The notes under the pieces: generated by a model
What the model was told of the DNA's origin: nothing
The model's input: the letters and a program-made list of their open reading frames with translations, nothing else
The model's database searches: none
NCBI GenBank assembly: GCA_017545505.1
Contig: JAFWNB010000003.1
Span: 76,830 to 140,829 of the forward strand
Length of the DNA: 64,000 nucleotides
Direction: 5' to 3'
DNA from: Candidatus Saccharimonadota bacterium
GTDB taxonomy: Bacteria; Patescibacteriota; Saccharimonadia; Saccharimonadales; Saccharimonadaceae
Shown here: positions 23,441 through 57,660 of the stretch, piece by piece
How positions within the stretch are numbered: position 1 is the stretch's first letter
Layout of the letters: every line of letters starts with the position of its first letter
Made by a program: the position numbers and the translations under genes

Positions 23441-24482
23441 GTTCTATCGAACTGCGGAGAGTGTTTCTCCAAAACATCCAGACAAACTTTGCGACCAAAT
23501 CAGCGATGCGATTTTGGATGCCTATTTAGCTAAGGATCCTAACGCACGCGTAGCCGCCGAAACCTGTGGTGGACACGGCGTAGTATTTGTGACTGGCGAA
23601 ATCACCAGTACGGCGAACGAAGTAGATATTCCAAAAATCGTCAAACGCATTGCAGGTGATGATGTAGAAGTTCATACTAAAGTCGTCAAACAATCACCAG
23701 AAATCGCTCAAGGCGTAGATACTGGTGGTGCCGGCGACCAGGGAATCATGATTGGCTACGCCTGTGATGAAACTCCTGAAATGGTACCACGCGAAGTAAT
23801 CTTAGCTCGCCGCCTCAATCAGTTTATTTATGAAAAATATCCATATGACGGCAAAACTCAAGTCACTATCGCCCCGAACGGCTCGATCGATTCAATTGTG
23901 GCAAGTTTCCAGAATGTACCACACGATAAATTAGAAAAGTTGGTTCGAGAGTTTATTGAAAAATTTGGGTTAATTGATGCTCCAAAACCATATTCTGAGG
24001 ACCATAAGCTTGGGCGAGCGCCCTCGAGCGCGTCCGAAGAAGATGGTTTGGAGCACGCAATCAAACTTCACATTAACCCGGCTGGCGACTGGAACCAAGG
24101 CGGCTTCGATGCTGATACTGGACTTACCGGACGCAAGCTTATCGTAGATAATTATGGCCCACGCGTCGCTATTGGCGGTGGTTGCTATTCTGGCAAAGAT
24201 CCAAGTAAAGTAGACCGCTCCGCTGCCTACATGGCTAGAAAAATTGCCGTAGATTATTTAAAAAAACGCCACGCCCATGAAGTTTTAGTCCGCCTAGCTT
24301 ACGCCATCGGCTACGCCGAACCATTAGAAAAAACCGTAATCATCGATGGAAAACCCGAAGAAATCGAAGGTTACGACTTAACACCAAACGGTATTATTAA
24401 ATTCTTAGATTTAAAACGACCAATCTACGAAAAAACTGCTATGTGGGGCCACTACGGCGAAGGTTTTGACTGGGATAAATAA
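23439..24482 (+). CDS. metK: S-adenosylmethionine synthetase
   Basis: ESVSPKHPDKLCDQISD, GAGDQG, DTGLTGRKLIVD, GKDPSKVDRSAAY; carries a palindromic insertion. Confidence 0.97.
   Translation: MFYRTAESVSPKHPDKLCDQISDAILDAYLAKDPNARVAAETCGGHGVVFVTGEITSTANEVDIPKIVKRIAGDDVEVHTKVVKQSPEIAQGVDTGGAGDQGIMIGYACDETPEMVPREVILARRLNQFIYEKYPYDGKTQVTIAPNGSIDSIVASFQNVPHDKLEKLVREFIEKFGLIDAPKPYSEDHKLGRAPSSASEEDGLEHAIKLHINPAGDWNQGGFDADTGLTGRKLIVDNYGPRVAIGGGCYSGKDPSKVDRSAAYMARKIAVDYLKKRHAHEVLVRLAYAIGYAEPLEKTVIIDGKPEEIEGYDLTPNGIIKFLDLKRPIYEKTAMWGHYGEGFDWDK
23985..24049 (+). repeat. Palindromic repeat element, in frame within metK
   Basis: Core gaggaccataagcttgggcgagcgccctcgagcgcgtccga matches 46160-46225 and 57588-57660. 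Confidence 0.8.
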
Positions 24483-24500
24483 TCGTGCCATAATATATAC

Positions 24501-26267
24501 ATGGCAAAAACAGGAAACATAAAAAGAACATTACATTATTTTTGGTTAGCTTTAATGCAGCATAAAATTAGAGCTATACTATTGCTTATTTTGATTCCAA
24601 TTTGGATTTTTATTCTTAATGTCGTCGTCCCATACGGCACATCGCAAATTATCGGCAAATTATCAAGCGGTGATTTCGAAATCGAAAATTACATCGGCGT
24701 GCTACTATTAACGATATTACCAGCAGCTTTTAATAATCTCGCCATGGTACGCTTTATTGACTGGCTAGATTGGTCAATTGATGCGCTTAGCGGAGAATAT
24801 TTATCAAAATTAGCATTCAAGGCAGTTATAAATCAATCTATGACTTTTCATAGCGAAAAGTTTTCCGGCTCACTAATTAGTGCGGCCAACAAGTTGCCAA
24901 GAGCATTTATAAACTTCAAATCTAACTTTGTATGGGATTTTTATCCTTTAATTCTAACTACAATTTATTCAATAGTCGTAGCAGCATTAATCTGCGCGCC
25001 ATTCGCGGCAATCCTAGCAGCATTTACTATTATTTATACGGCAGTAGCAGTTACTACCTACTACAAAACACGTAAAGTTGACGAAAACCTAGCAAATGCC
25101 GAAAACAAACAAACCGGACAACTAGCAGATGCAATCACGAACGAGATGTCGGTAAAATCATACGCGCGCGAAAATCTAGAAAACACCAGATTTGCTATTG
25201 CTACTAAACACACTAAAAAAGCAACTTTTAACGTTGCTAAAGTTTCCATGTGGCGTAATCTTTCTATGAATATAGTAAATATGATAACCTTTGCGGGGTT
25301 GCTTATTCTGATCGTTATGAGCCATAATTGGTTTGGTCTTTCAGTGGCAAATATGGTCTTTTTGTATTCACTTTCAAATTCATTACTTTCAAAAGTTTGG
25401 ACAATTAATCATATTTTAAGATCTATCAACCGCTCATTTGGAGATGCAAAAGAAATAGTAGAAATCTTGGACCTTCCTTTAATAATTGATGACAAAACAG
25501 ACAAACCACTCAAAATTACACAGGCAGAAATATGCTTTAATCATATTGCATTTAAACACCATGATCAAAAAACTGAATTATTCAAGGATTTTTGCTTAAC
25601 CATCCCAAGCGGCAAAAGCATAGGTCTAGTTGGCGTATCTGGCTCTGGCAAGACTACACTAACTAAGCTTTTATTAAGATTTGACGACGTTACATCTGGC
25701 TCAATTGCTATAGACGGGCAAGATATCAAAGATGTGACCCAGAAAAGTTTACGCGAGAATATAGCATATGTCCCTCAGGAATCCTCACTATTTCATCGTT
25801 CAGTTTTTGAAAACATTGCCTACGGCAAAATAGATACTACAAAGGAAGAAGTTATTCGCGCCGCAAAACTAGCCAATGCGGATGAATTTATCAACGAACT
25901 TCCAAACAAATACGAAACCCTAGTCGGTGAACGCGGGATAAAACTATCTGGTGGCCAAAGACAAAGAATCGCAATTGCGCGAGCTATTTTAAAAGATGCA
26001 CCAATTTTAATCTTAGATGAAGCGACCTCCGCGCTAGACTCAGAATCTGAAGGATTAATTCAAGAAGCACTTAAAAATCTCATGAAAGGCCGTACCGCAA
26101 TCGTCGTAGCTCATCGCTTGTCTACTATTGCTGGACTAGACGAAATTGTTGTTTTAAAAAATGGCCGCATCGTTGAACGCGGCACACATCATGAATTATT
26201 AAAATCAAACAAAGAGTATGCTAAGCTTTGGTCAAAACAAAGTGGAGCATTTCTAAAAGAAAATTAA
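24501..26267 (+). CDS. ABC exporter, fused permease/ATPase (MsbA/multidrug-like)
   Basis: Six TM, GVSGSGKTT, LSGGQRQR, ILDEATSALD. Confidence 0.93.
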   Translation: MAKTGNIKRTLHYFWLALMQHKIRAILLLILIPIWIFILNVVVPYGTSQIIGKLSSGDFEIENYIGVLLLTILPAAFNNLAMVRFIDWLDWSIDALSGEYLSKLAFKAVINQSMTFHSEKFSGSLISAANKLPRAFINFKSNFVWDFYPLILTTIYSIVVAALICAPFAAILAAFTIIYTAVAVTTYYKTRKVDENLANAENKQTGQLADAITNEMSVKSYARENLENTRFAIATKHTKKATFNVAKVSMWRNLSMNIVNMITFAGLLILIVMSHNWFGLSVANMVFLYSLSNSLLSKVWTINHILRSINRSFGDAKEIVEILDLPLIIDDKTDKPLKITQAEICFNHIAFKHHDQKTELFKDFCLTIPSGKSIGLVGVSGSGKTTLTKLLLRFDDVTSGSIAIDGQDIKDVTQKSLRENIAYVPQESSLFHRSVFENIAYGKIDTTKEEVIRAAKLANADEFINELPNKYETLVGERGIKLSGGQRQRIAIARAILKDAPILILDEATSALDSESEGLIQEALKNLMKGRTAIVVAHRLSTIAGLDEIVVLKNGRIVERGTHHELLKSNKEYAKLWSKQSGAFLKEN

Positions 26268-26301
26268 GCCCGTAGGCTTATTCTATTTTCCATGCGTAGC
26301 A

Positions 26302-26417
26302 TGGTGGGCGAAGAGGGAATCGATTCGAAGAACGATTCCAACTTTTTACATACGCAGTATGGTGGGCGAAGAGGGAATCGATTCGAAGAACGATTCCAAC
26401 TTTTTACATACGCAGTA
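26302..26417 (-). repeat. Two tandem 58-bp repeats each ending in the tRNA-Leu 3' end (incl. CCA)
   Basis: tggtgggcgaagagggaatcga at 26302, 26360 and 26418 with identical intervening sequence. Confidence 0.9.
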
Positions 26418-26504
26418 TGGTGGGCGAAGAGGGAATCGAACCCTCATGGTATCGCTACCATTGGATTTTGAGTCCAACGCGTCTACCAATTCCGCCATTC
26501 GCCC
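26418..26504 (-). tRNA. tRNA-Leu(CAA)
   Basis: gggcgaa...ttgga-ctCAAaa-tccaa, long variable arm, ggttcgattcc, encoded CCA. Confidence 0.96.
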
Positions 26505-26552
26505 GTGTCAATAATTATACCATATCTAAATCTGATATGCTATAATAAACCT

Positions 26553-27740
26553 ATGGATTCAAAAATAGGTGGGCAATCTTCAAATGACTTGCAACGCCAA
26601 GCTGCGGCAACTATCGCCAGACGTAAAGTTTTGGCAGCTTATGCTAAATCCGCAAAAAATGCCGAAAAGGAACAAAATGCCAGTTCGTATAAAAATGAGC
26701 CCGTAACGCATAAAATTAATTCAGAATCTTGGAAAAAATACCATTCCGCGTGGCAAGACTACTACCAAAAGTATTACAGCGAATATTACTCCAATGCTGC
26801 TAGAAATTATATAGCAAAAGAGCGCCTAAAAGATGCCCGCGAAAAAGCCGAAGAAGAAGAAATCATGAACTCTGTTTTAAAATCTAGCGCCAAGCTAGAC
26901 AAAAAATCCGGTCTTTCTCTTGGCGCGTCCGCAAACTCCGAAGAAAATAACAGTATCCGTCAAAATTTACGCGCTCATATTCGCAAGAAAGCTACAGATA
27001 GCGCCAAAAAAACCCGTCGCCATCGCCGATTAATCCCCATCATCGCGGGAATTACCGTAGTCTTACTGATTTTATTTTTGCAATATAACCGTTTAATTTT
27101 TGCGCCAATCATGGCCTATGTCTCTCCCGGTAATTCACCAGCCTCAGAAATTGAAGCAATAGATCCAACCATTACGCAAACCGTCTCGGCTGATCCACGC
27201 TTAATTATTCCAAAACTAAATATCGACGTACCGGTCCATTTTGGTATTGGACTTTCGGAAGTAATGTCGGCGATGAACAACGGTGTAGCTCACTATCGCA
27301 TCGCCGGTGCTAGCGCCTTCCCAGGCGAAATTGGTAATTTAGTAATTACCGGTCATTCCGCAGGCGATGTTTATAGCTCTAACCCATACAAATACATTTT
27401 CTCTGGGCTAGAAAGATTAAGTGACGGCGACCTTATTTACATTAATTACAAATCCACCAGATATACGTATCGCGTAATCAAAAAAGAAGTTGTAGAGCCT
27501 TCAAATGTGGCTGCTCTCGTCGTAGAAACCAATAAACCACTTCTTACTCTAGTGACTTGTACGCCACTCGGTACATCAAGATACCGTTTGCTTGTTACTG
27601 CTGAACAGATTTCTCCAAGCTACGATGCGGCCGAACAATCCGAAAACATGCCAACTATAGACCAAAATTCAGAAGAATTTCTTCCTTCCAACGAACCATC
27701 ATTCTTTGAAGGAATATGGAATTGGTTAACCGGCAATTAA
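26553..27740 (+). CDS. Sortase with long N-terminal extension
   Basis: ITGHS, LTLVTCTPLGTSRYRL (His/Cys/Arg triad), TM at ~RLIPIIAGITVVLLILF. Confidence 0.88.
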   Translation: MDSKIGGQSSNDLQRQAAATIARRKVLAAYAKSAKNAEKEQNASSYKNEPVTHKINSESWKKYHSAWQDYYQKYYSEYYSNAARNYIAKERLKDAREKAEEEEIMNSVLKSSAKLDKKSGLSLGASANSEENNSIRQNLRAHIRKKATDSAKKTRRHRRLIPIIAGITVVLLILFLQYNRLIFAPIMAYVSPGNSPASEIEAIDPTITQTVSADPRLIIPKLNIDVPVHFGIGLSEVMSAMNNGVAHYRIAGASAFPGEIGNLVITGHSAGDVYSSNPYKYIFSGLERLSDGDLIYINYKSTRYTYRVIKKEVVEPSNVAALVVETNKPLLTLVTCTPLGTSRYRLLVTAEQISPSYDAAEQSENMPTIDQNSEEFLPSNEPSFFEGIWNWLTGN

Positions 27741-29134
27741 TGTTCCACTAACCATTCTCTTATTAAACTGTCATCACTAATATAATACAACCACTTATCC
27801 GAAGTAATGGTAACAGGGAAGTGATCGGAAACATTTGAAGCTAATACTCTATGGTTTAACCCATCAAAATCATACACTGTCAATTCACCACCATTAACCG
27901 CATATATCATATCATCATCCAACCAGCCGTATCTCTCACCACCCAGCGACCATTCTATAATATTGGTAGACTCCATATCGAGCGTCGCAATATTAGCGCC
28001 ATTAAACATTATAATGAACTCACCATTATGACCGACTTTCATTTTTTCTGGCACAAAACTAAGTCTAAATTCCTGAATCCTAGAAAAATCATCTTCTTTA
28101 AACAGATTTACGTTATCATTCTGGATGATAGTTAAATACTTATCATCATAGAATTTACTAATCAGTATTTTTGCCGGATCGGTTATTGTTTCGAGTTTTT
28201 CGAGTTTACTATCACCAATTTTTGTAATTCCTACTTCAAACTCACTATCGAGCTTAGCGACATATGCAATTTCGTTTTCAAAATGATCAAAACTAACAAC
28301 ATTGTCAACAATAATTGCGGATATCACTTTACCTGAAACATCAATTTTATGTAAATTATTGTTTTGTACGACTAATAAACTGTTTGCCGAATTATCTAAG
28401 ATTCTTACATCTGTAAAAGTTGCACCAAACTCCTTTGTAAGATTTGTGCTATTCTTTAAGTTCTTTACATCAATTAAAGCCCATTCGATTTCTTCACCGT
28501 TTTTTACTTTGAATAACACATGACTATTATCCTTTGCCCAATCTATACTAATTATTTCGCCGCCGAACAAACCAACCGATGCCCCCTCGGCTACACTTGC
28601 ACTAGAAAAGTATTCCGATGTATTTATTATATTTATCTCGGCTTTTTCTCGATCAAGATTTATTAGCTTCCATTCCGTAGTGTTATTAATCATTATTGCC
28701 ATTTCACGATTTGGAGAAACGCTAGCGAGAGTTGTACCACTAATATCTAAGATTTTTTCTTTTTCGCGTTTTAACAAAAATAATCTAGGATAGTGGATTC
28801 GGTATAATAATCCTTCAGATATTTCTACTGTTTTCGACCACGAATCATAACCATCTTTTTTTAGCTTTATTGTATGTTTTCCGCTAGGCAACACCTTGGA
28901 CGTATTCGTACGTTGTAACCATGCCGCTTTGTCGTCAATTATTACTTCGGCGCCAGTAGGCACGGAAGATATTTGCAAAAGCCCTTGTCTTTCAACTTTA
29001 AAATCTGAGTTCACCCAATAACCAGAAACCACGAAAGCAAGAGAAATCACCGTAACGATTACCGCTAAAGTCATTATTATCTCAGAAGCAATCACTCGAT
29101 AACTTTGACGACGTCGCTTTTTTTCTCTATCCAT
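27737..29134 (-). CDS. PEGA-domain membrane-anchored protein with beta-rich C-terminus
   Basis: GLLQISSVPTGAEVIID...LPSGKHTIKLKKDGYDSW. Confidence 0.8.
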   Translation of the reverse strand: MDREKKRRRQSYRVIASEIIMTLAVIVTVISLAFVVSGYWVNSDFKVERQGLLQISSVPTGAEVIIDDKAAWLQRTNTSKVLPSGKHTIKLKKDGYDSWSKTVEISEGLLYRIHYPRLFLLKREKEKILDISGTTLASVSPNREMAIMINNTTEWKLINLDREKAEINIINTSEYFSSASVAEGASVGLFGGEIISIDWAKDNSHVLFKVKNGEEIEWALIDVKNLKNSTNLTKEFGATFTDVRILDNSANSLLVVQNNNLHKIDVSGKVISAIIVDNVVSFDHFENEIAYVAKLDSEFEVGITKIGDSKLEKLETITDPAKILISKFYDDKYLTIIQNDNVNLFKEDDFSRIQEFRLSFVPEKMKVGHNGEFIIMFNGANIATLDMESTNIIEWSLGGERYGWLDDDMIYAVNGGELTVYDFDGLNHRVLASNVSDHFPVTITSDKWLYYISDDSLIREWLVEH

Positions 29135-29227
29135 ATATGCCTAAATTATATCATGAAAATACAAAATTAGCTCTTGCATTTTATTTTAAACAATAGTATC
29201 ATGGATATAAGAATAAGCGAGGTTATA

Positions 29228-29965: not shown

Positions 29966-29971
29966 TTATTT

Positions 29972-31411: not shown

Positions 31412-31430
31412 ATTCTATATTATATCACAA

Positions 31431-32411: not shown

Positions 32412-32501
32412 AACTATATTGTAACACATATTTTTAATTTTTATGCTAAAATTATAAAAAATAGTTATGTTTTTTTGAAAAACTTAAAGTGGAGTAAGAA
32501 A

Positions 32502-34441: not shown

Positions 34442-35803
34442 ATGAGTAGATTACCAATCGTAGCACTAATCGGACAAACTAATGCGGGCAAATCCAGCCT
34501 GTTAAATCGCATGGCTCATAAAAATATTGCCATCGTAGCACGTGAAGAGGGCACTACTCGCGACAATGTAATAGCTACTATCGATAATCGTTTTATCCTA
34601 ATTGATACAGCCGGCTTAAAAGACCCTTCAGATGCTTTTGAAGCCTCGATTCAAGATCAAATTGAAGATGCCATCGATTCGGCAGACCTTATTATAGTTA
34701 CCATAGATTCTACCAAGTATCCAGATCATCGCGACAAAGAAATCGCTAAAAAAGCCTTAAAGTCTAAAAAACCGGTATTTTTGGCACTTAATAAAACTGA
34801 TTTGAAAGAAGCACTTGAAGCAAACGAATTCTTATCACTAGGTATTAAACCAAACGAGACCTTCCAAGTTTCCGCCACCACCGGACTGGGAATTAGCAAA
34901 TTAAAGGAGAGCTTAATTGGCTCTTTGAGGGGATTTCGGAGCGTGGCAGCGCGAGAATTAGCGCCGTCCGCCCGTGGCGACGGGCCGGACGGACGCGACC
35001 CGAAAAGAGCTAATAAGCTCCCTCTGAAAGTTGCTTTAATTGGTCGTCCGAATGTGGGGAAATCAAGTTTATTTAATAGTCTTAGTAAAAAACAACAGGC
35101 CATTGTGAGCTCCAAACAAGGAACCACAAGAGATGTCAACAGAGTACAAATTAAATATAAAGGTCAGGAAATTGAAATTTTAGACACCGCTGGTCTCAGA
35201 AAACCAGGCAAACGCGAAGTTGGTATTGAAAAATTCAGTGCAATCAGAAGTCTCGCCGCCATCGAAGAAGCTGATATTTGTGCATTACTTGTTGACGCTA
35301 CTGAACCCCATTCAAAATTAGACCAATCACTGGCCGGCCAAACTATTGAAGCCGGCAAGGGAATTATTGTAGTTTTGACTAAAGCCGATCTCGTAGAAAA
35401 CACAGATCAAATTTTAGATGATTTAGAACGTGATTATAATTTTCTTCCTTTTGCACCAGTATTAATCACAAGTTCCGAAACCGGTAAAAATGTCACTCAA
35501 TTATTTGAACTTGCTTTAGAAATAAATCAAACCAGACATCAAGAAGTTAAAACATCAGAATTAAACAAAATCCTAAATGAGGCTATTATCAGCCATCCTC
35601 CAGCCGGCCTAAAAAATACAAGGCCAAAACCAAAATATATCGTCCAAACCGATGTTTGCCCGCCCTGGTTTGTAGTCCATGGTCACGATCTAGGGCTACT
35701 CCACTGGTCTTATAAGCGCTTTTTAGAGCGTAAAATCCGAGAAAAATATCCGTTTGTTGGCACGCCAATTAAATTTTCTTTTGTTAGTGATAAAAAATCT
35801 TAA
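34442..35803 (+). CDS. der: Ribosome biogenesis GTPase Der (EngA)
   Basis: Two G domains (GQTNAGKS, GRPNVGKS; DTAG; NKTD/TKAD) and KH-like C-terminus; GC-rich insertion in the linker. Confidence 0.96.
   Translation: MSRLPIVALIGQTNAGKSSLLNRMAHKNIAIVAREEGTTRDNVIATIDNRFILIDTAGLKDPSDAFEASIQDQIEDAIDSADLIIVTIDSTKYPDHRDKEIAKKALKSKKPVFLALNKTDLKEALEANEFLSLGIKPNETFQVSATTGLGISKLKESLIGSLRGFRSVAARELAPSARGDGPDGRDPKRANKLPLKVALIGRPNVGKSSLFNSLSKKQQAIVSSKQGTTRDVNRVQIKYKGQEIEILDTAGLRKPGKREVGIEKFSAIRSLAAIEEADICALLVDATEPHSKLDQSLAGQTIEAGKGIIVVLTKADLVENTDQILDDLERDYNFLPFAPVLITSSETGKNVTQLFELALEINQTRHQEVKTSELNKILNEAIISHPPAGLKNTRPKPKYIVQTDVCPPWFVVHGHDLGLLHWSYKRFLERKIREKYPFVGTPIKFSFVSDKKS
34910..35019 (+). repeat. GC-rich palindromic element, in frame in the der interdomain linker
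   Basis: Closing stem agcttaattggctcttt/aaagagctaataagct; shares tttgagg...cgcgac(c)cgaaaaga ends with the other copies. Confidence 0.6.
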
Positions 35804-43089: not shown

Positions 43090-43095
43090 CTCTAA

Positions 43096-45123: not shown

Positions 45124-46161
45124 TTGATGGACAAAAATGCGGAAATTCTGAAAAAAGCAATCTCTGGCAGCCTAAAAATTATCGAACAAGACCGCGAAAA
45201 GGAAATTATTTCCCGTCGTTTTGGACTCAACGGTCCAAAGGAAACCCTCGAACAAATAGGTGAATTACTTTCAATCACTAGGGAACGAGTACGCCAACTA
45301 GAGAAAGCAATTTTGATTCATCTTCAAATAGCCGCAGAGGACAATCAAATTCCAGAATTAGCTGCCGCCGAAAAACTTCTTGTTCGTAATCTTACTGAAA
45401 TGGGTCGCGTAGCTAGACTCGACGATCTAGCTGACAAAATTTATGAGCACAAAACCAATGCCAGAGAAAAATCCGGTCTCTATTTTATTGCAACATTTTC
45501 CAAAAATCTTACAATCGTCGAAGAAAACGATAAATACTACGCTTCAATTGGTATAGCAGAATATGGTAATAGCCGTAAAATTCGCGACCGAATTGATGAA
45601 ATCGTTCAAATAATTAAAGCTAACAAAAAACCGATGACCTTAGATGAACTTGACGAAAAACTAAATTATGAACACCCTGATCATATTAAAGCCATCGCGT
45701 CAACTTCAAAATTGCTAGCTACCCTTAACAATGTCTGGGGATTGGCTAAATGGCCATCCGTTAATCCTAAAAACATTCGTGATAAAATTTACGTTATCCT
45801 AGAATCCAAAAAAGAACCAATGCATTTTTCTGAAATTGCTAAAGAAATTAAAGATTCTAATTTTAAACGTAAAAATGTCACCATTCAAGCAATCCATAAC
45901 GAATTAATCAAAGATGAACGTTTTGTCTTAATCGGACGTGGTATTTATGCGCTTTCTTCCTGGGGCTATAAAAAGGGAACTATATCTGATATTATCAAAT
46001 CAATCTTAGAAAAATCCAATGAACCATTAACACGCGAAGAAATCGTCAAACAAGTTCTAAAAGTTCGCAAAGTTAAAGAAACTACTATCCTCTTAAACCT
46101 CCAAAACAAGAAACTATTCAAGAAAATTGATAAAAATTTATATACATTAACGGAAGTCTAA
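45124..46161 (+). CDS. sigma70 region 4 HTH + HARE-HTH (RNAP delta-like) domain protein
   Basis: RRFGL...ETLEQIGELLSITRERVRQLEK; IRDKIYVIL...PMHFSEIA...AIHNELIKDERFVLIGRGIYAL. Confidence 0.75.
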   Translation: MMDKNAEILKKAISGSLKIIEQDREKEIISRRFGLNGPKETLEQIGELLSITRERVRQLEKAILIHLQIAAEDNQIPELAAAEKLLVRNLTEMGRVARLDDLADKIYEHKTNAREKSGLYFIATFSKNLTIVEENDKYYASIGIAEYGNSRKIRDRIDEIVQIIKANKKPMTLDELDEKLNYEHPDHIKAIASTSKLLATLNNVWGLAKWPSVNPKNIRDKIYVILESKKEPMHFSEIAKEIKDSNFKRKNVTIQAIHNELIKDERFVLIGRGIYALSSWGYKKGTISDIIKSILEKSNEPLTREEIVKQVLKVRKVKETTILLNLQNKKLFKKIDKNLYTLTEV

Positions 46162-46225
46162 AATAATCATTTGAGGACCATAAGCTCGGACGAACACCCT
46201 CGAGTGTGTCCGAAAAGATTATTTT
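46160..46225 (+). repeat. Palindromic repeat element, intergenic
   Basis: aaaataatc...gaggaccataagctcggacgaacaccctcgagtgtgtccga...gattatttt. Confidence 0.8.
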
Positions 46226-46257
46226 AGACTTCTTAATAATGTGGTATAATTATTCTT

Positions 46258-49161
46258 ATGGAAAATGTCATACATTTTATTTTAATGCCAATCGTTTGGA
46301 TCCCAATTGTAGCTATTTTGGCTTTCCTAACTTATAGGAACTACAAGAAACTCAACAAATTAAAAGTACTAAATGTTGATTCTGTACTCTTAATGCTAGA
46401 AATCCCGCGTGAAAACGACAAAAAAGAGCTCGCTGCCGAGCAATTATTTGCTTCTCTTCATGGCATCTTGCGCGACAAACAAGAATTAAAAAATTCTGGC
46501 GGAGTCCAAGAACACCTATCTTTTGAAATTGTCTCCACCGGTGGCCAAATTCGATTTTACGTTTGGACGCCAAAAATTTTGCAAAGTTTTGTGGAAGGGC
46601 AAATCTACTCTCAGTATCCAACCGTTCAAATCTACAAAATGAACGAAGACTACGTAGATAAACGCACAGAATACCCTGTTATATACTCTTCTGAATTAGG
46701 ACTAGTCGATAGTGAAGTTTTACCAATTAAAACCTTTGACAATTTTGAAGTAGACCCACTTGCCGGCATTACTGGCACACTCGCCAAACTCAATACCGAC
46801 CGATCAGAAGAACTTTGGATTCAGATTCTTGCTCGTCCAATTGCTGATGATTGGCATAAAAACACTACTGATAAATGGGTACAACGTGTTAAATCTGGTA
46901 AAAAATCCATCTTGGCTGGTACCGGTATTGATTGGACGTGGCTGGTAGAAGCTCTCGGAGCTCTATTTCGTCCACCCGCAGGCGGTACTAATTCCGAAGT
47001 CAAAATTGAATTATCCGAGCGAGATAAAACCCGCATAGCAAAAGCAGAAGAAAAAGCTACTAAACTAGGTTATGATGTAAAAATCCGCTTGGCGTATCTT
47101 GGTCAAAACCAAACTGATGCTAAGCTCAACATGCAAGCCTTAGTAGGGACTTTCAAACAGTATAACTCTACCAACCTAAATGGTTTTAAACAGCTCGGTT
47201 CAAGTTTTAACGCTACAGATTTAGATGGCTACAAAATGCGCCAATTTTCTGATCGTGGCTTCATTTTAAATATTGCTGAGTTAGCTTCCGTTTATCATCT
47301 ACCACATACCTCAGTAGAAACCCCAAATATAGTCTGGGCCACTTCAAAAACAGCTGAACCACCTGCCAAGCTTCCAATTCTCACTGGTGAAGTAATAAAC
47401 GACAAAAATGTTTCAGCCTTTGGGCTTACCAATTTCCGTGGCATTAACCAACAATTTGGCTTACTTCGACGTGACCGTTCTCGTCATGTATATATTATCG
47501 GCCAAACAGGAGCAGGGAAAAGCGGTATGTTAGAGCTCTTAGCGCTCTCTGATATATTTTACGATCAAGGGTACTGTATTATAGATCCACATGGTGATTT
47601 TGCGATAGACAACCTCAGGTTTATTCCGGAATCACGTGTTAATGATGTGATATATTTCAACCCGGCAGATACCGCCTTCCCTATTGCCTTTAACCCGCTC
47701 GAAGTAACCGACCCAGCCAAAAAGCCAAATATCTGCTCTGAAGTTATCGGCGTATTAAAACGTATGTTTGGCGACTCTTGGGGTCCTAGACTTGAGCATA
47801 TTCTTCGCTATACCCTACTAGCACTATTAGATCGTCCAGAAACCACCCTACTAGATATTTCCAGACTCTTAACAGACAAAGACTTTCGTAAGGAGACCCT
47901 AAACTATTGTAATGATGTCACGGTGTTGCAATTCTGGAAACACGAATTTGGGCAATGGAACGAAAAACAAGTCAATGAATCAATTGCTCCAGTGCTAAAC
48001 AAAGTCGGTGCCTTTACCGCAAATCCTATTATCCGAAATATTATTGGTCAGCCAAAATCATCTTTCGATATTCGCAAAATTATGGATGAAGGTAAGATTC
48101 TGGTTGTAAACCTATCAAAAGGCTTAATCGGTGAAGATAACGCCGCGATACTCGGTGCATTTTTAGTGACTAAAGTTCAATTAGCCGCTATGAGCCGCTC
48201 GGACATCCCTAACGTTGCTGATCGTAGGCCATTCTATCTTTATGTTGACGAGTTCCAAAACTTCGCTACCGAATCTTTCGCAGTCATCCTTTCAGAAGCT
48301 CGTAAATATGGTCTTAATTTAACCGTAGCAAACCAATATGTAGCTCAAATGACCGACCAAGTCCGCGATGCAGTATTCGGTAACGTTGGTACCACTATTT
48401 CCTTCCGTGTCTCCCCAGAAGACGCACCGACCTTAGTAAAGCAATTCGAGCCAACTTTTGACGAATCAGACCTAATTCAACTCAATAACCGCCATTTCGT
48501 TATCTCGATGATAATAAACGGCGAGAAAGTCCCAGCTTTCTCTGCTACAACTCTTTCTATTCCAGAAAGCCCCAAAGACAACCTTGACGCTATTATTGCG
48601 CATTCCCGCGAATATTTTGCTCGTCCACGCCTAGAAGTCGAAAAAGAAATCCGTGAAACAATTGAGCAATCCGAAAAATATAAAAGGGAATTAGCTAACT
48701 CTGGTCGCCAAGAGCCTAAACTCGTGATAGATTCGAAAACTGTCGAATTCAAACCGATTTCTCATACCGAACAAAAACCGAACTTAAAACAATCATCGCT
48801 AAAGGAAGATTTTAGACGTCAAAATCTTAGCCCAAATACAGCTGAAGGTAAAGAAAGATTGGGTCTGAAAGATTTAGCCAAGTTAGCCGCCGAAGCAGGG
48901 AAAGTCGAATACAAAACCACCAAAAAGGGGAATAAACACACAAAAAAGAAAGGGAAAGCTAATTCTACCCCTGTAATTCCCCCTGTTAAAACAAAAGAAA
49001 AAGCTACCCCTGTTCGACCAGAGGTGGAATATCAAGAAAAAACAACTGCCGAAATAGCGCCCTCGCATCATTCGACACCCCTGTCTACCCCTATAAATCG
49101 CACGGATCATTATGTAGAAAAAGATAACTCGGTAGATGGATTTCTTGCAATTAAACACTAG
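46258..49161 (+). CDS. TraG/VirD4-like (DUF87/HerA-type) membrane ATPase
   Basis: RHVYIIGQTGAGKS, IIDPHGD, LYVDEFQNF, SEARKYGL, GNVGT; low-complexity tail. Confidence 0.85.
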   Translation: MENVIHFILMPIVWIPIVAILAFLTYRNYKKLNKLKVLNVDSVLLMLEIPRENDKKELAAEQLFASLHGILRDKQELKNSGGVQEHLSFEIVSTGGQIRFYVWTPKILQSFVEGQIYSQYPTVQIYKMNEDYVDKRTEYPVIYSSELGLVDSEVLPIKTFDNFEVDPLAGITGTLAKLNTDRSEELWIQILARPIADDWHKNTTDKWVQRVKSGKKSILAGTGIDWTWLVEALGALFRPPAGGTNSEVKIELSERDKTRIAKAEEKATKLGYDVKIRLAYLGQNQTDAKLNMQALVGTFKQYNSTNLNGFKQLGSSFNATDLDGYKMRQFSDRGFILNIAELASVYHLPHTSVETPNIVWATSKTAEPPAKLPILTGEVINDKNVSAFGLTNFRGINQQFGLLRRDRSRHVYIIGQTGAGKSGMLELLALSDIFYDQGYCIIDPHGDFAIDNLRFIPESRVNDVIYFNPADTAFPIAFNPLEVTDPAKKPNICSEVIGVLKRMFGDSWGPRLEHILRYTLLALLDRPETTLLDISRLLTDKDFRKETLNYCNDVTVLQFWKHEFGQWNEKQVNESIAPVLNKVGAFTANPIIRNIIGQPKSSFDIRKIMDEGKILVVNLSKGLIGEDNAAILGAFLVTKVQLAAMSRSDIPNVADRRPFYLYVDEFQNFATESFAVILSEARKYGLNLTVANQYVAQMTDQVRDAVFGNVGTTISFRVSPEDAPTLVKQFEPTFDESDLIQLNNRHFVISMIINGEKVPAFSATTLSIPESPKDNLDAIIAHSREYFARPRLEVEKEIRETIEQSEKYKRELANSGRQEPKLVIDSKTVEFKPISHTEQKPNLKQSSLKEDFRRQNLSPNTAEGKERLGLKDLAKLAAEAGKVEYKTTKKGNKHTKKKGKANSTPVIPPVKTKEKATPVRPEVEYQEKTTAEIAPSHHSTPLSTPINRTDHYVEKDNSVDGFLAIKH

Positions 49162-49833
49162 GGAATAATAAAAATTGATAACAATTAGAAAAGGTATAGC
49201 CGCCAAGGCAACAAAACTGGCGGCTTTACTGATCGCAATTTTAGCATAAGTTTAATGTCGCACAATATAGATTTCAAGACATTAAGCTTATGTTTATAAG
49301 ACGATAAAGTAATCGTCCAAAACATAGAAATATCCCCAGAAAAGCGGGAAGAGCTCTAAGAAATATTATTTGTACCTATATAATATTAATTTTATTTACA
49401 TTGAACGAGCCCGATAATAATTAGATTTTTACAGGGCGAGTACGGTACTGAAATACCGGCGCAGCCCTGCCTAAAAATCTAATAATTATCGGACGCGTAG
49501 TGAAGCGTAAATAAAATTAATATTATGTAGGCGCATTAACTATATCTTTAACCCGACCCCTGTCTTATCTGAATTTTTGCAAGTTTTCACAAAAAGTTTT
49601 CCACATTTGACATTTCCCCATTTTATTTCCCTTTTTTACGTTTTCCCCTGTTATTTTCTATATTTTGTTTCCCTACTCTAAAAAACAACATCAATTTTTA
49701 GAACAAAAACCGAACAAAAACAGAGAATAATATAACAGAGGTAGAAACCAATTTCACCCCTGTTATTTCCCTATTTCCAATATGCTTTCCCCTCTATTCG
49801 TACATCGATATACTCGTACTCGCCTACCCCTGT
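48968..49833 (+). repeat. Cluster of eight same-strand CCCCTGT heptamers
   Basis: Starts at 48968, 48980, 49007, 49078, 49557, 49645, 49757, 49827. Confidence 0.6.
49371..49535 (+). ncRNA. Candidate long-hairpin RNA (6S-like or divergent SRP RNA)
   Basis: Outer stem cctatataatattaattttatttac/gtaaataaaattaatattatgtagg, central bubble, inner stem, apical cggta-ctgaaa-taccg. Confidence 0.5.
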
Positions 49834-52766: not shown

Positions 52767-53785
52767 ATCGCTCCTCCGGTAGCCGCAATAAAAATGCCCA
52801 CGAATGCACAAACCCCAGCAATAATCCAAAATCTCATCACGATTTTAGCCTCGCCCCATCCCTTTGCTTCTAAATGATGATGTAGAGGCGCCGAAATAAA
52901 TACTTTCTTGTGAAAAAACTTTTTTGAGGTTAACTGTATTAAACTTGAGGCAGTTTCGACCACAAATGGCAAACCGATAATTGGCAAAAGCAAAAATGCA
53001 TTTGTCATCATCGACACCACTCCAAGCCCAGCCCCAAGCGCAAACGACCCGGTATCCCCCATCATGAATCTCGCTGGTGGCACGTTAAACCAGATATAGC
53101 TAAGTAGCCATCCCACTACAGTCAAACAAAAACCAAATAACATCACATTGCCCTGAAACAGAGCAATAATACCAAATGCAGCATAAGCCATCAATGCGAG
53201 ACCGCCAGATAAACCATCCAGTCCATCTGTAATATTTACCGCATTAGAAGTAGCAACCAGTGCAAATGCGAATATTAGTATCATCCAAAACACTCCTACT
53301 TCAAAATCTCCCACAAAAGGAACTAAAATCGTTGTCCAACCTAATTTTACTGCGAAAAACCAACCAAGGATCAGGCCTACAACCGTGATTAGGAAAAACT
53401 TAACTGGACCGCGCAAGCCTGCTGCCCCCCTTCCCGAACCAAATATATTAATTACATCGTCGATTACTCCTACTAACGCTCCACCCAAAAAACCAACTAG
53501 AGGCAACCAAGTTTGTCCACGATCAAGATTAAAAATCCAAGTCACAGCCGTTACCGCCACGACTCCAATTAACCCCGCCATCGTTGGGAATACGTGCTTA
53601 AACTTATGAGCATGCAGTTTAGTCATTACTGGAAGTTCTTTTCCGTCAACTGTAGTTTTCTTTTGTTTTTTCCAAAACTTATACTTATATGCAAAATGCG
53701 TATAAAATGGCGTTAGAACCATCGAAAACAAAAATCCTGCAAGTGCTAACAAAAGTCCATAGAATACTCTATCATTTATTGACAT
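52763..53785 (-). CDS. mraY: Phospho-MurNAc-pentapeptide transferase
   Basis: PTMAG, GVIDD, NAVNITDGLDGL, MGDTGS, APLHHHLE. Confidence 0.95.
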   Translation of the reverse strand: MSINDRVFYGLLLALAGFLFSMVLTPFYTHFAYKYKFWKKQKKTTVDGKELPVMTKLHAHKFKHVFPTMAGLIGVVAVTAVTWIFNLDRGQTWLPLVGFLGGALVGVIDDVINIFGSGRGAAGLRGPVKFFLITVVGLILGWFFAVKLGWTTILVPFVGDFEVGVFWMILIFAFALVATSNAVNITDGLDGLSGGLALMAYAAFGIIALFQGNVMLFGFCLTVVGWLLSYIWFNVPPARFMMGDTGSFALGAGLGVVSMMTNAFLLLPIIGLPFVVETASSLIQLTSKKFFHKKVFISAPLHHHLEAKGWGEAKIVMRFWIIAGVCAFVGIFIAATGGAI

Positions 53786-53786
53786 A

Positions 53787-55544
53787 TTATACCCCTGGTT
53801 TAATCTTTAAATAATCAATGAGGTAATTCGAAAGCGAATCGAACAAAGACATTGCTTGACCACTATCAATGCTTTGACCCTCTCCCCACATTTTAACCAT
53901 TATTACGTATTTTGGCAACTCATTCGATGGTCCAACAAAACCAATATAAGAACCGACCAGTTGTGCAAAAGTATCGTCATACGCCCCATTCACCACAACT
54001 TGTGCCGTACCAGATTTACCACCAATCGCATAGCCAGCACGATCGATACCGCCTCTTACTTTATAACCACGGTTATTTATCAACATATCACGCATCATCG
54101 CAGATGTTTCGTCGCTCAAGATTTTATCATTTACGTCTTCTACCATAGATTTAGCAGTAAATTTTCCGTTATTAATTGTTCCTTTGACTACATTGGGCGT
54201 ATGATAAACTCCGCCATTTACTACCGCCGAAAAAGCCGTAGCCGTCTGAATCATTGTGATTCCAAGATTCTGGCCAAAAGTCATGTTAGCATAGGTTGAA
54301 TCACGCCCCCAACCTTCATTTGGATCCTCAATATATCCTGCCGCTTCTATTAATTCGATCCCTGTAATTTTACCTAGACGAAACTTATTATGGTAGTAAT
54401 CGTATAGCTTTTCCCTACCAGTTTGGTTAATACTATTTGGATCATCTCCCAACAATTTTAGCGCATATATCGAACCAGTATTAAGCGACCAATACAAAGC
54501 ATCTTTCATTGTTAAAGTGCCGTATAAAGAAGCTCTTTGTTCGGCATTTTGAATTTTCCATCCATCTACTTCTTCAAAACCTTTATTGAAATAAGTCGTT
54601 TCGCTAGTCATTTTACCCTCATTAATTGCCGCCGAAAATGCAAAGTTTTTACAAATTGAAGCCGGTTCATACGGCACATCGGTCACCTGGTTCACGTAGA
54701 CCGAAGCATCTGATACTTTGGCATAATTTCCCGGATCATAAGTTGGCACGTTTGCCATTGTAATCACTTCCCCATTATTTGGGTTCATAATCAAGACCGA
54801 TGCATTCGTAGCTGTACTATTAGCTACTGTATTAGCCGCAATCTCTTCGACTCCTTTCTCAAGTCCACGGTCAACTGACAAAACAATGTTTTCTCCATCC
54901 TCTGCAGGTATTTTTATATTATCATTGCCAATTGAAAGCGCTACCTTATTAACATCCGCAATAGTTTTTATTAAACCTTCCTTCCCCGACAAAACATCGT
55001 TTAGTGATCCTTCTACACCATATTGCCCAACACCTTCATTGTTTACGAACCCAAGCAAGCCCGAGGCTAATTCTCCTTCGGGATATACTCTTTGATTAAC
55101 TTTTTTTAACCAAATCGCCGGGATACCAGATTCAGCAACTTTTTCCGCCGTTTCTCTTGGTACATTTTTTGCCACAATTGAATAGCGTAACCCATCAGTA
55201 TTATATACTTCGTTTAAGTCTACTATTGTATAATCCTTAACATATTCGTTGACAATCTTTTCAATATCCTCTTTTTTTGTAACAGTAGGATCGATTACCA
55301 CCTGGTAAGTTGTTTGATTTAACACTACAGCTACAGGCTCTCCGTCATCCATCATATATATCTCACCTCTTCTCGGTGTGATCACCTCAAGAAGAGTATG
55401 CTGCTCATCGGCCCTAGCCACCCAATCATTATGCTCAATTATCTGAATAAAAAATAGACGCACTAAAATTACGCCTATTAAAACAAAAACTATATTTCTT
55501 AAAATCTTAAAACGTTGTAAAACCCCAGTATTACTCTGTGGCAT
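53787..55544 (-). CDS. ftsI: Class B penicillin-binding protein (FtsI)
   Basis: PRRGEIY, YEPASICK (SxxK), SLN, GKSGTAQ. Confidence 0.88.
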   Translation of the reverse strand: MPQSNTGVLQRFKILRNIVFVLIGVILVRLFFIQIIEHNDWVARADEQHTLLEVITPRRGEIYMMDDGEPVAVVLNQTTYQVVIDPTVTKKEDIEKIVNEYVKDYTIVDLNEVYNTDGLRYSIVAKNVPRETAEKVAESGIPAIWLKKVNQRVYPEGELASGLLGFVNNEGVGQYGVEGSLNDVLSGKEGLIKTIADVNKVALSIGNDNIKIPAEDGENIVLSVDRGLEKGVEEIAANTVANSTATNASVLIMNPNNGEVITMANVPTYDPGNYAKVSDASVYVNQVTDVPYEPASICKNFAFSAAINEGKMTSETTYFNKGFEEVDGWKIQNAEQRASLYGTLTMKDALYWSLNTGSIYALKLLGDDPNSINQTGREKLYDYYHNKFRLGKITGIELIEAAGYIEDPNEGWGRDSTYANMTFGQNLGITMIQTATAFSAVVNGGVYHTPNVVKGTINNGKFTAKSMVEDVNDKILSDETSAMMRDMLINNRGYKVRGGIDRAGYAIGGKSGTAQVVVNGAYDDTFAQLVGSYIGFVGPSNELPKYVIMVKMWGEGQSIDSGQAMSLFDSLSNYLIDYLKIKPGV

Positions 55545-55881
55545 AACCACTTACCACCGCTGTTTCCATTGCGGCAGCCACTGCACTATTTTTGGCTGTA
55601 GCAATCGAAGACAAACGTGCCTTTTCAACTGCCAAATCTTCTTTTTTTGCTGTCATTTCTGTAATCTCAGTCTCCACATTTGATAATTCATAATCAAAGC
55701 TCGTAGCTTTACTTCCCTCTGCTACATATATTAAACCAAAAACCAGCGTTAGCATACTTACAATTACAATCTGAGATATTGAGCCTAAACTTCTCTTTGT
55801 ATGGCGGACAGTATTACGATTACGTGCAAAGCTATTAGAAAATGCATCACGCCTCGTAACATAGGTAGTTTGGTTTATCAT
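55531..55881 (-). CDS. FtsL-like cell division protein
   Basis: One TM plus leucine-zipper-like region; position between rsmH and ftsI. Confidence 0.65.
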   Translation of the reverse strand: MINQTTYVTRRDAFSNSFARNRNTVRHTKRSLGSISQIVIVSMLTLVFGLIYVAEGSKATSFDYELSNVETEITEMTAKKEDLAVEKARLSSIATAKNSAVAAAMETAVVSGYATE

Positions 55882-55930
55882 TTTTTCCTCGCTATTTATT
55901 TTTTATTTGTTTTTTCACAGTTTGTATTTT

Positions 55931-56102
55931 CTTAGTCCGGGGCCCCTACAGCCAGAGCTATAAGTAAACTGTAAGGGTTATCCCGGGAAGGTCATACACT
56001 TCACACTCTCTGTGAAACTCTAAATTGGCGGACCGATCTCGGCCCATGTCACTTCTGTCTCGGCCCTTGAGTGGGGATTTCCCACTCAAGGTAAGGGAGA
56101 CT
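55931..56102 (-). ncRNA. Candidate structured RNA between rsmH and the ftsL-like gene
   Basis: GC-rich island in an AT-rich spacer; stems ccttgagtggg/cccactcaagg, cccttacag/ctgtagggg, ttcac/gtgaa. Confidence 0.35.
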
Positions 56103-56168
56103 TTAGCGGAAATGAACCTTTACGGTTTGTTTGCGAGATTTATTCGCAACTAGTATTTGTTTTGGCAT
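56103..56168 (-). CDS. Candidate 21-aa basic leader peptide MPKQILVANKSRKQTVKVHFR
   Basis: Perfect SD aaggagg 5 nt before the ATG; stop immediately precedes the structured region. Confidence 0.4.
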   Translation of the reverse strand: MPKQILVANKSRKQTVKVHFR

Positions 56169-56199
56169 ATTGCCTCCTTTTTTTATGTTTTTATTTTTA

Positions 56200-57075
56200 T
56201 CAATTCCTCTCGGCAACCCGAAGCTTAGCGCTTCGAGACCTGGGATTGATAGCTATTTCCTCATTCCCCGCAACAATTGGTTTTTTCGTTATAATTCTTA
56301 ATTCCGATTCTTCACCATGGCTACTTGCTTCCCTAAAATAATCCTTAACTAGTCTATCTTCTAGACTATGGAATGTAATAATTCCCACGCGTCCATTTTT
56401 ATTCATTAGTTTAGGCAAAATCGGCAATGCTCGTTCTATTTCACCAAGCTCATCGTTTACTTCGATGCGTACCGCTTGAAAGATTTTTGTAGCAGGATGC
56501 GTTTTACTATACCCATGCCATCGTACTCGTATCAACTCTGCTAGTTCCCTCGTCGTCTTAATTGGACGATGATGCACGATTATCCTTGCAAACATCGCTG
56601 CTCGTCCTGGCGACTCTTCGCCATACTTAATAAATAACTCTGCTAAATCCTTCTCGCTGTATTTATTTATTACATCACTCGCTGTTAATTTTTGCCTTCT
56701 ATCCATTCTCATGTCCAGTGGCGCATCATACCGAAACGAGAAACCTCTTTCACCTTTATCCAGCTGCGGAGACGAAACCCCAAAATCTGCAAGTATTAAA
56801 TCAAAAGTTTCTCCACTTTCATAAAGCTGTAGCATAGCGTTATAAAAGCTTTCATGTTTAATTTCTACCTCAGATGAGAAAATGCTTTTAAGATAATCTA
56901 TTGCAAATCCATCTCGGTCAACCAAACAGGCACCTTTATAATTCTGTGTTACATCCAAAAATTCACTAGCATGTCCACCGTAACCGGCAGTCAGATCTAA
57001 ATATCGTTCCCCGGGATGCGGCTCCATAGTTGCTAGAACTTCCGATAATAATACTGGATTATGTAGTTTCTCCAT
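56200..57075 (-). CDS. rsmH: 16S rRNA m4C1402 methyltransferase
   Basis: HNPVLLSEV, DLTAGYGGH, DFGVSSPQLD..ERGFSF, FHSLEDRLVK, NPRSRSAKLR. Start revised to 57075. Confidence 0.96.
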   Translation of the reverse strand: MEKLHNPVLLSEVLATMEPHPGERYLDLTAGYGGHASEFLDVTQNYKGACLVDRDGFAIDYLKSIFSSEVEIKHESFYNAMLQLYESGETFDLILADFGVSSPQLDKGERGFSFRYDAPLDMRMDRRQKLTASDVINKYSEKDLAELFIKYGEESPGRAAMFARIIVHHRPIKTTRELAELIRVRWHGYSKTHPATKIFQAVRIEVNDELGEIERALPILPKLMNKNGRVGIITFHSLEDRLVKDYFREASSHGEESELRIITKKPIVAGNEEIAINPRSRSAKLRVAERN

Positions 57076-57097
57076 GTATTTATTATACATCACTTGC

Positions 57098-57350
57098 TTG
57101 AGACCAGCCAACTAGAAACTTCAGCGGTTTTGTTTTTGCTTCGATTTTTATTTGTTTACACAATTAATCCACCACGATTTACCAGCGCGAAGCTAATCTT
57201 ATATCGCAGCCGTTGAGAGACTTATTGTGTGTTGGTTTTAGACCATATAGAGTTTTATTGGGAGGTGTGTTAAAGAAGGAACGCACGATTTTGTTGACGC
57301 ATCTCGCTATCTTTTAATGCGCGCCGAAACTCCTAGTTGGCCGATCTCAA
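57098..57350 (-). ncRNA. Candidate RNA closed by a 29-bp long-range helix
   Basis: 57322-57350 pairs with 57098-57126; all six non-Watson-Crick positions are G-U on the minus strand. Confidence 0.5.
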
Positions 57351-57478
57351 ACTGATTTTAATGTACGACTTTTTGTTTAGCGTTTTTGTATTGTATTTCG
57401 CTGACTTCAGTTTAGTATATTTTTTTTAAAAATGCAAGTGTTTTTTTAGACTTTTTATATATAGTTTTTACCTACGAC

Positions 57479-57498
57479 TTTTCCACAACTGTGGATAT
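57479..57498. promoter_or_regulatory. Inverted pair of DnaA-box-like 9-mers
   Basis: ttttccaca (57479-57487) and tgtggatat (57490-57498), each one mismatch from TTATCCACA. Confidence 0.45.
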
Positions 57499-57587
57499 TT
57501 TCTCTGTTATTTTTCCCGAACAAATACCATTGATTTTATGTACTTTTCATGTCATAAAAACCGAACATATAGATAAATAAGATATTT

Positions 57588-57660
57588 TTTAAATTCTCTT
57601 TCAGAGGTCGTAAGACTTGGCCTAGCGGCCCGGAGCGCGACCGATGAAAGAGAATTTAAA
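57588..57660 (+). repeat. Palindromic repeat element, intergenic
   Basis: tttaaattctctttca-gaggtcgtaagacttggcctagcggcccggagcgcgaccga-tgaaagagaatttaaa. Confidence 0.7.

Follow-up and report, generated by a model that had tools for sequence, protein, structure and literature searches.

A probable superfamily of palindromic DNA hairpins with conserved cores and free arms in genes and intergenic regions of gut Saccharibacteria

Results

Hairpins in metK, der and two intergenic regions

A stretch of 64,000 nucleotides from a Candidatus Saccharimonadota bacterium (assembly GCA_017545505.1, contig JAFWNB010000003.1, positions 76,830 to 140,829), hereafter called the window, was analysed for a set of hairpin elements. 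Its G+C content is 39%, and the best hits of its MetK and Der proteins bear the name Candidatus Saccharibacteria. An earlier note, made from the letters of this DNA, had pointed to four GC-rich hairpins, one within metK, one within the inter-domain linker of der (engA) and two between genes. All four were recovered, none of them displaced by more than about 10 nt from the places given there (Table 1). Compared with dinucleotide shuffles they gave z scores of -5.4 to -7.9 when folded as RNA and -4.5 to -7.9 when folded as DNA, or -4.2 to -8.2 at the widest, and none of 200 shuffles equalled them.

The four hairpins share a plan. A long AU-rich closing stem, specific to each copy, leads to a symmetrical GA/GA internal loop, inside which lie a GC-rich interior and, before it, a brief helix of G-C pairs, which reads GGAC/GTCC except in the 57.6-kb copy, where it is the compensated GGTC/GACC. 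The core that the note had seen in three copies is real, as is the paired change between them, and the closing stems do differ from copy to copy while remaining complementary. The der copy is larger and has only the ends in common with the others (GA-GGG...CCC-GA), again as noted; it belongs to a separate family, B. A family-A covariance model, built from a gap-free alignment of 110 copies from other genomes and the window, found exactly three copies in the window, all on the plus strand, with no other match below E = 0.05; the der copy did not match it.

Table 1. Positions of the hairpins and of associated features. Positions refer to the window except in the last row.
Feature	Position	Core	Strand	Details
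metK hairpin, family A	23978-24058	23997-24037	+	arms ~18 bp; covariance model 81.5 bits, E = 1e-18; in frame as ...APKPYSEDHKLGRAPSSASEEDGLEH...
der hairpin, family B	34906-35026	34927-35003	+	in der (EngA) inter-domain linker; arms ~20 bp; two internal GC-rich hairpins in core; reading-frame product ...SLIGSLRGFRSVAARELAPSARGDGPDGRDPKRANKLP...
Intergenic hairpin 1 (46.2 kb), family A	46153-46232	46173-46213	+	covariance model 68.3 bits, E = 3e-15; sigma70_r4/HARE-HTH gene on one side, VirD4-like gene on the other
Intergenic hairpin 2 (57.6 kb), family A	57585-57663	57604-57644	+	covariance model 66 bits, E = 1e-14; between divergent mraW and KwaB-like gene; core divergent, with compensated GGTCG/CGACC helix
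TGGTATAAT, extended -10-like box	46242-46250		+	10 nt past the 46.2-kb hairpin; consensus match only
TGGTATAAT, extended -10-like box	57666-57674		+	3 nt past the 57.6-kb hairpin; consensus match only
metK, host gene of metK hairpin	23439-24482		+	347 aa; insert-free relatives 320/321 aa
der/engA, host gene of der hairpin	34442-35803		+	453 aa
SAM-I riboswitch	23349-23443		+	RF00162, 58.8 bits; directly 5' of metK
VirD4/TrwB-like ORF	46258-49161			ATG 8 nt past the TATAAT box (46245-46260 region)
KwaB-like ORF	57698-58675		+	directly 3' of the 57.6-kb hairpin; Kiwa anti-phage defence domain, E = 9.5e-9
Nested long palindrome	49385-49535			inner 27-nt arms at 49405-49431 and 49472-49498
LeuRS copy pair, family A (loci L108 and L087)	L108 7236 / L087 442			contig CAVFLV010000024.1, ORF 6477-9062

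Insertions in the MetK loop and the Der linker

Alignment with orthologs confirmed the proposal that the metK and der copies are in-frame insertions. Among the 120 closest homologs of MetK, 102 lack all 26-27 insert residues and 13 carry the same insert (consensus SSEDHKLGRTALSVSEED); five retain the 3' arm alone (EEDSPK), and in one the site is occupied by another insert, of 26 residues. The peptide is absent from unrelated MetK proteins, and the segment is missing from the solved MetK structures, in which the insertion point is a loop before the conserved '...NPTG' strand. Predicted insert peptides include SEDHKLGRAPSSASEED in MetK and FRSVAARELAPSARGDGPDGR in Der. An AlphaFold2 model of the insert-bearing MetK modelled the insert as coil; it was poor (mean pLDDT 50) and was not used.

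The segment between the two GTPase domains of Der varies from 41 to 112 residues across 120 homologs. Twenty of these have a short linker, 33 have a linker of the type in the window (..RSAAAR..RGDG..), 4 have the same type in another frame or on the other strand, and a family-A core is found in 2. Inserts of similar length and unrelated sequence also occur in the same loop or linker, in the MetK homolog P0057 and in Der homologs including P0123, P0133 and P0161. The alignments indicate that the MetK loop and the Der linker are general hot spots of length variation in Saccharibacteria. Directly upstream of metK lies a SAM-I riboswitch, so that the hairpin-bearing gene is itself controlled by S-adenosylmethionine.

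Three families with conserved cores and free arms

To count copies elsewhere, one degenerate core pattern was scanned over one genome per bacterial or archaeal species. At least 118 stretches matched, and the counts of copies, frames and strands given below rest on the matches listed. Together with the window and locus L001, these amount to at least 124 distinct copies, so that the idea of a repeat family held. The matches listed come from Saccharibacteria or Candidatus Nanosyncoccus metagenome-assembled genomes (MAGs), or from bins mislabelled as other taxa, apart from one chance hit (Georgenia). Many of the matching MAGs carry ruminant-gut labels, among them goat, sheep, yak and cattle.

Elements are 67-137 nt long, with cores of 41-79 nt. 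In family A the core is 41 nt long (GAGGACCRTAAGCTYGGSCGARCGSCCTYGAGYGTGTCCGA) and about 90% identical between any two copies, and the arms of non-orthologous copies are 36% identical, which is near random, while remaining complementary within each copy. In the alignment of 110 copies 91% of the cells are paired, compared with 74% after shuffling and 34-52% when the partners are slid. Two-sided changes were found at 15 of the 18 pairs of the outer helix (arms and P2), and in the apical helix the S18-S25 pair is divided between G-C (50 copies) and C-G (57 copies). In the arms, the six pairs beside the core almost always have a pyrimidine on the 5' side and a purine on the 3' side. Covariation also links position 22 of the core, which lies in the GARC loop, with position 33 (G-C in 61 copies, A-T in 45, with 4 exceptions); these two cannot pair within the nested hairpin, and the link would be a tertiary contact or else a helix of an alternative fold. 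Family A also has a long form, found for example inside an FtsJ-type gene at L001, with 21 nt more in the apical loop, where a 23-nt segment replaces two loop bases.

Family B comprises the der copy and 13 relatives in the collected loci, with a 74-77-nt core that contains two internal hairpins with compensatory changes. Family C has a 72-79-nt core, and its sites include the Der linker of a syntenic relative (L003). A CCCGTRRCGACGGG hairpin is common to families B and C, and in two copies an interior of the B type is enclosed by the ends of family A (GAGGAC...GTGTCCGA). All three families follow one plan: free arm, GA, structured GC-rich core, GA, free arm. In a metagenome the core is about 20-25 times as deep as its flanks, and contigs end at it. 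The four hairpins are probably copies of a small non-autonomous palindromic DNA superfamily of gut Saccharibacteria. Searches with the core against the contigs of IMG/VR, the phages of INPHARED and the plasmids of PLSDB gave no match, and a phage or plasmid origin was dropped. A full-text literature search found no earlier description of such elements in Saccharibacteria or Patescibacteria, and the paper naming Nanosyncoccus does not mention them; the superfamily is apparently undescribed so far.

Placement in reading frames and near promoter-like boxes

Of 123 copies, 72 (~58%) lie deep inside long open reading frames (ORFs), about 43 are intergenic and 8 touch a locus end. Stop codons are absent from four of the six frames in which the consensus core can be read, and coding copies use these four alone (+0 in 29, -0 in 22, -1 in 17 and -2 in 5), as selection for an open frame would leave them; the inserts are most simply read as translated. 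Each coding copy is predicted to add 25-35 residues, which lie within a loop in the case of MetK and within a linker in that of Der. Of 73 coding copies, 29 are sense to the host gene (24+5) and 44 antisense (40+4).

Many of the intergenic copies stop a few bases before a TGNTATAAT box. Both intergenic copies of the window do so, and the observation that each lies just 5' of a promoter-like box was correct in the sense of a consensus match (TGGTATAAT after both). The ATG of the VirD4/TrwB-like ORF follows its TATAAT box at a spacing that suggests a leaderless mRNA. In one intergenic subfamily of family A, related arms run into a TGYTATAAT box. Three members belong to one genome, UBA2866 (L026 1604, L030 1641 and L113 3110), with arms that include part of the box, and others occur at L009, L029, L031, L055, L056 and L107. 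The likeness of these arms suggests that one hairpin took part of a -10 element with it as it spread to several loci.

Orientation follows the replication strand

The strand that reads GAGG...CCGA in the core is the strand of negative GC skew in 106 of the 118 listed loci (mean skew -0.12, p = 3e-20). Long-ORF length is divided almost evenly, with 52% on the negative-skew strand, and the bias is therefore no by-product of gene direction. Orientation is uniform in 13 of the 15 contigs with at least two family-A copies. The skew of the window is negative throughout, and its four copies are all on the plus strand. At two orthologous sites the orientation of the core relative to the gene switches exactly as the position of the gene relative to the skew switches, and the exceptions to the rule are concentrated in a few orthologous groups. 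An apparent switch of orientation on contig CAVEVP...002 was considered as a replication origin or terminus and rejected, dnaA being absent from the tiles examined and L118 being one of the skew exceptions.

G.T wobbles are frequent on the plus strand (91 core pairs and 50 in proximal arms), while the mirror A.C mismatches number 5 and 17, so that the fold of the plus strand is the one that is kept. Nearest-neighbour DNA energies of the two strands are almost equal, and unequal folding stability was for this reason rejected as the cause of the bias.

The note had left room for an element acting at the RNA level. Such an element, whether a ribozyme, a spliced intron-like element or a regulatory or protein-binding hairpin, would account for the compact fold with its tandem G.A pairs, invariant unpaired bases and covarying long-range pair, and for the acceptance of G.T wobbles on one strand only; core-containing contigs are also present in a metatranscriptome. 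A structured RNA should however keep a fixed orientation to transcription, and 44 of the 73 coding copies are antisense, with orientation tracking GC skew and not transcription. Coding copies moreover preserve the frame and use stop-free frames, as if they were translated. Rfam 15 gave no match at the gathering score and nothing meaningful at E <= 10 for the metK, intergenic and der copies, on which ground known RNA families, self-cleaving ribozymes included, were rejected. Splice joints across a hairpin were not seen in assembled contigs from public runs, where RNA coverage is poor. Replication polarity combined with indifference to transcription argues for an element of DNA that is single-stranded at the fork and against a ribozyme, intron or regulatory RNA, and we regard a role at the RNA level as very improbable.

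Gain, duplication and flipping of copies

For 34 of the 64 coding copies that could be tested, at least one ortholog in the collected loci is shorter by at least 54 nt at the site. Flanks of such filled and empty pairs are up to 95% identical, and the empty sites lack the arms as well as the core. A LeuRS ORF of 862 residues holds two family-A copies 1.2 kb apart, with the same 22-nt arms and cores that differ by one base. Their flanks are unrelated, which indicates a recent duplication of the whole hairpin, arms included. A family-B copy abuts the second of them, so that hairpins cluster in the same permissive stretch. Copies of different families stand side by side in several genes, and at one locus a new copy lies beside the remnant of an older one. 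Within one genome, subfamilies with related arms occur at several loci. At some orthologous sites the core is flipped between similar arms (L054 versus L102; L045 versus L093 and L118).

Target duplications were sought at the insertions and none were found: in 101 of 117 copies the two flanks share no identical bases, and in the others the match is of 2-3 nt, which is the level of chance. A flank or target motif was not found around the copies either. The 326-residue MetK forms, which have the 3' arm only, are a clade nested among empty forms on the MetK tree, and they had raised the idea that one arm is copied from the target as an inverted target duplication. The idea was not accepted as generally valid, since neither arm is present at empty sites and the LeuRS duplicate has brought both to its new place.

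Some of these features would also be expected if the hairpins spread without a dedicated enzyme, by template switching at stable palindromes together with transformation and homologous recombination between strains; the strand bias would then stem from preferential deletion of one orientation on the lagging-strand template. Saccharibacteria are reported to be naturally competent, and the window has a gene for DprA. Over the MetK tree, alleles that hold the insert and have homologous arms are dispersed, cores are flipped between similar arms, and the 326-residue MetK with its single arm is what a palindrome-stimulated partial deletion predicts. Yet folding energies as close as those of the two strands would be a weak driver of a 9:1 bias. 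The spread of just these cores, with their invariant unpaired bases, to unrelated sites is left unexplained, as is the LeuRS duplication between sites without flank similarity. Enzyme-free spread is considered unlikely.

Conservation and stability of the core

Between orthologous pairs the flanks are 74% identical, the arms 66% and the core 93%. The species of the window is represented by nine further contigs, with 99.94-100% identity to it. Seven of them cover the der hairpin and four the 46.2-kb hairpin, and in all of these the hairpin is invariant; the 46.2-kb hairpin is also found, gap-free, in 2 related strains. No excision, flip or insertion was seen directly, near-clonal contigs included. 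In run X16, from a strain about 97% identical, a canonical-type core end is joined to the gene at 57698. Compared with window positions 57604-57680, this junction has a different 38-nt downstream sequence with its own TATAAT, which suggests that the hairpin of the 57.6-kb site has been replaced in that strain.

Another possibility is a chromosomal signal beneficial to the host, in which the folded core would be kept for replication, repair, segregation or the nucleoid, like Chi, KOPS or a REP-like site, and coding copies would merely lie where the signal is tolerated. The strong replication-strand polarity is in line with a signal, as are the equal conservation of the core in orthologs and paralogs while arms and flanks diverge, the invariant unpaired core nucleotides with the covarying 22-33 contact, and the constancy of copies among near-clonal strains. 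A signal would not, on the other hand, be expected to be patchily present across related species, to cluster side by side or to be placed at a cost inside essential proteins. Depending on the species, the Der linker holds an A, B or C core, so that at least three core families occupy the same kind of site. We know of no oriented chromosomal motif that resembles a structured core of 41-77 nt, which also counts against this explanation, and we judge it improbable.

Search for a responsible enzyme

The 64-kb window yielded no candidate for the enzyme, whether a transposase, a RAYT or another protein, nor an integrase or cassette array. The cognate TnpA-REP/IS200 transposase that the note had proposed to look for was sought further by tblastn in 976 kb of related DNA, with E. 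coli RAYT and IS608 TnpA sequences as Y1 transposase and RAYT queries; the best match had E >= 0.14 in this sample, which covers about 2% of each genome and is too small to exclude a single-copy gene.

Comparison with known elements

The closest biological analogue is the Rickettsia palindromic element (RPE), reportedly described by Ogata et al. in 2000; with Saccharibacteria as hosts, the hairpins would be an analogue and not a member. Like RPEs they are short palindromic repeats of several coexisting families in a reduced-genome, host-dependent bacterium, with no known transposase, and many copies lie in frame in conserved protein genes, to be translated as extra surface segments. Repeated palindromes in frame within conserved ORFs are seen here in the 72 ORF copies and their insert-free orthologs, and these together with the LeuRS duplication lend support to the RPE analogy and to the idea of new protein loops. 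RPEs are conserved over their whole length, whereas the Saccharibacteria elements are conserved in the core only; the host phylum here is Patescibacteria, and the replication-strand bias is strong. To our knowledge such a bias is unreported for RPEs. RPEs are mentioned in PMC10969869.

Repetitive extragenic palindromes (REPs) and REPINs, whose populations persist over long times (PMC6006769, PMC3733652), are likewise GC-rich multicopy hairpins and the presumed substrates, in folded single-stranded form, of an HUH enzyme present in single copy (RAYT). REPs are 20-40 nt long and extragenic, have a GTAG/CGTC head at the hairpin foot and usually form inverted doublets. In contrast, the foot of the Saccharibacteria elements is variable, 58% are intragenic, the cores measure 41-79 nt, and neither the window nor the 976 kb gave a RAYT.

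IS200/IS605 elements (PMC5027513) resemble the hairpins in being strand-specific at the fork, in their seamless gain and loss without target duplication and in the recognition of folded DNA, and the replication-orientation bias expected of them was observed. They have two distinct subterminal hairpins and a fixed tetra- or pentanucleotide target, whereas one symmetrical hairpin without a target motif is found here, the usual skew convention would put the strand that folds better on the other template, and no TnpA was found in the window or the 976 kb. [quoted passage not shown] Their conserved terminal inverted repeats and target-site duplications have no counterpart in the hairpins, with arms at 36% identity and flanks without duplication. 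A parent insertion sequence was not found in the window, and the other genomes were sampled as fragments only. Membership in the classical MITE, REP or IS200/IS605 groups was rejected on these tests (arms, head, target, mostly intragenic placement and no transposase found in the window or the 976 kb).

Comparable organellar hairpins include the GC clusters of yeast mitochondria, the double-hairpin elements of Allomyces and the byp elements of Magnusiomyces; the last are skipped by the ribosome, whereas the Saccharibacteria elements keep the frame. In the coding palindromes of Nematomorpha (PMC6649704), too, hairpins that are perfect or rich in GC lie within the protein genes of reduced, AT-rich genomes, and their arms must satisfy pairing and coding together. 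They are mitochondrial, in contrast, lack a conserved core and do not form an obvious family of repeats (PMC6649704). The organellar coding palindromes are a more distant parallel than RPEs. Finally, integron attC sites (PMC5371416) resemble the hairpins as recombination-type sites that are defined by a folded single strand, with variable sequence, conserved structure and sensitivity to the replication strand. In attC the outer R''/R' boxes (RYYYAAC/GTTRRRY) are conserved and the centre is variable; the reverse is true here, where the arms vary, the centre is conserved and the window is without an integrase.

Other features of the window

The ORF 3' of the 57.6-kb hairpin has a KwaB-like domain (Table 1). 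Between two convergent genes lies a nested long palindrome with outer arms AATATTAATTTTATTTAC/GTAAATAAAATTAATATT and a GC-rich centre (CAGGGCGAGTACGGTACTGAAATACCGGCGCAGCCCTG); a second copy was absent from the 976 kb of related DNA and no Rfam match was found. It may be an element of another type or a bidirectional terminator. In the window about 12.7 kb (10590-23318) separate a DUF308 gene from metK, with genes for an NTP-transferase, DnaE, SmpB, exonuclease III and glycosyltransferases, whereas in the syntenic relative L003 the DUF308 gene adjoins metK, pointing to a rearrangement or indel between close relatives.

Discussion

The hairpins are best read as selfish elements comparable to RPEs and REPINs that are copied by a strand-specific process acting on single-stranded DNA, a reading to which we assign a probability of roughly 60%. 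Of the proposal of a MITE/REP-like or RNA-level selfish element, the repetition, the in-frame insertion and the mobility stood; an RNA level is disfavoured, and the classical MITE and REP types did not fit. New copies would arise on DNA that is single-stranded at the replication fork, where existing ones might also be removed or flipped. The underlying activity would be specific for strand and structure, reading the folded core and needing the arms only to pair. Selection would purge insertions that break a frame or a fold, and the survivors would be those in protein loops, linkers and intergenic DNA, often just upstream of -10 boxes. The elements themselves may be selfish or near-neutral, as RPEs and REPINs are. 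A precedent exists in the IS200/IS605 elements, with strand-specific, replication-coupled single-strand transposition and precise excision (PMC5027513).

Several results weigh against the reading as a selfish single-strand element. Neither a target motif nor a target duplication surrounds the copies, and no event was caught directly. The identity of the core in orthologs (93%) is about that of any two copies (90%), which is unexpected under simple decay and may reflect selection on each copy. The folding strand would, by the usual skew convention, be the leading-strand template, the opposite of the IS608 rule. The absence of an enzyme from the window and the 976 kb is a further point, though weak evidence.

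A bolder version is possible and, in our view, doubtful: that the hairpins are a new class of replication-strand-oriented single-strand DNA element in candidate phyla radiation (CPR) bacteria, in which the core is read and the sequence of the stem ignored, and in which cores are continually copied, flipped and exchanged. Such continual turnover, if true, would account for the concerted evolution of the cores and for an orientation that tracks the replication strand even after inversions. Loops of 25-35 residues would then be written continually into essential proteins, by an enzyme of unknown kind or by a known one in a new use.

There are also practical consequences, in that metagenome assemblies break at the core, the length variation of CPR proteins is inflated and the elements could serve as lineage markers. 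The combination of conserved core, free stems and replication polarity offers a clear handle for finding the responsible activity. If the preferred reading as a selfish single-strand element is true, the genomes of ultra-small episymbionts, about 1 Mb in size, carry dozens of selfish hairpins, most of them in essential genes such as those for MetK, Der, LeuRS and FtsJ, and new loops in proteins, like hairpins beside promoters, have a natural source in these elements. This would be a second, independent Rickettsia-like case in an unrelated lineage with reduced genomes, and it would open to test the question whether such elements are favoured by a reduced genome and dependence on a host.

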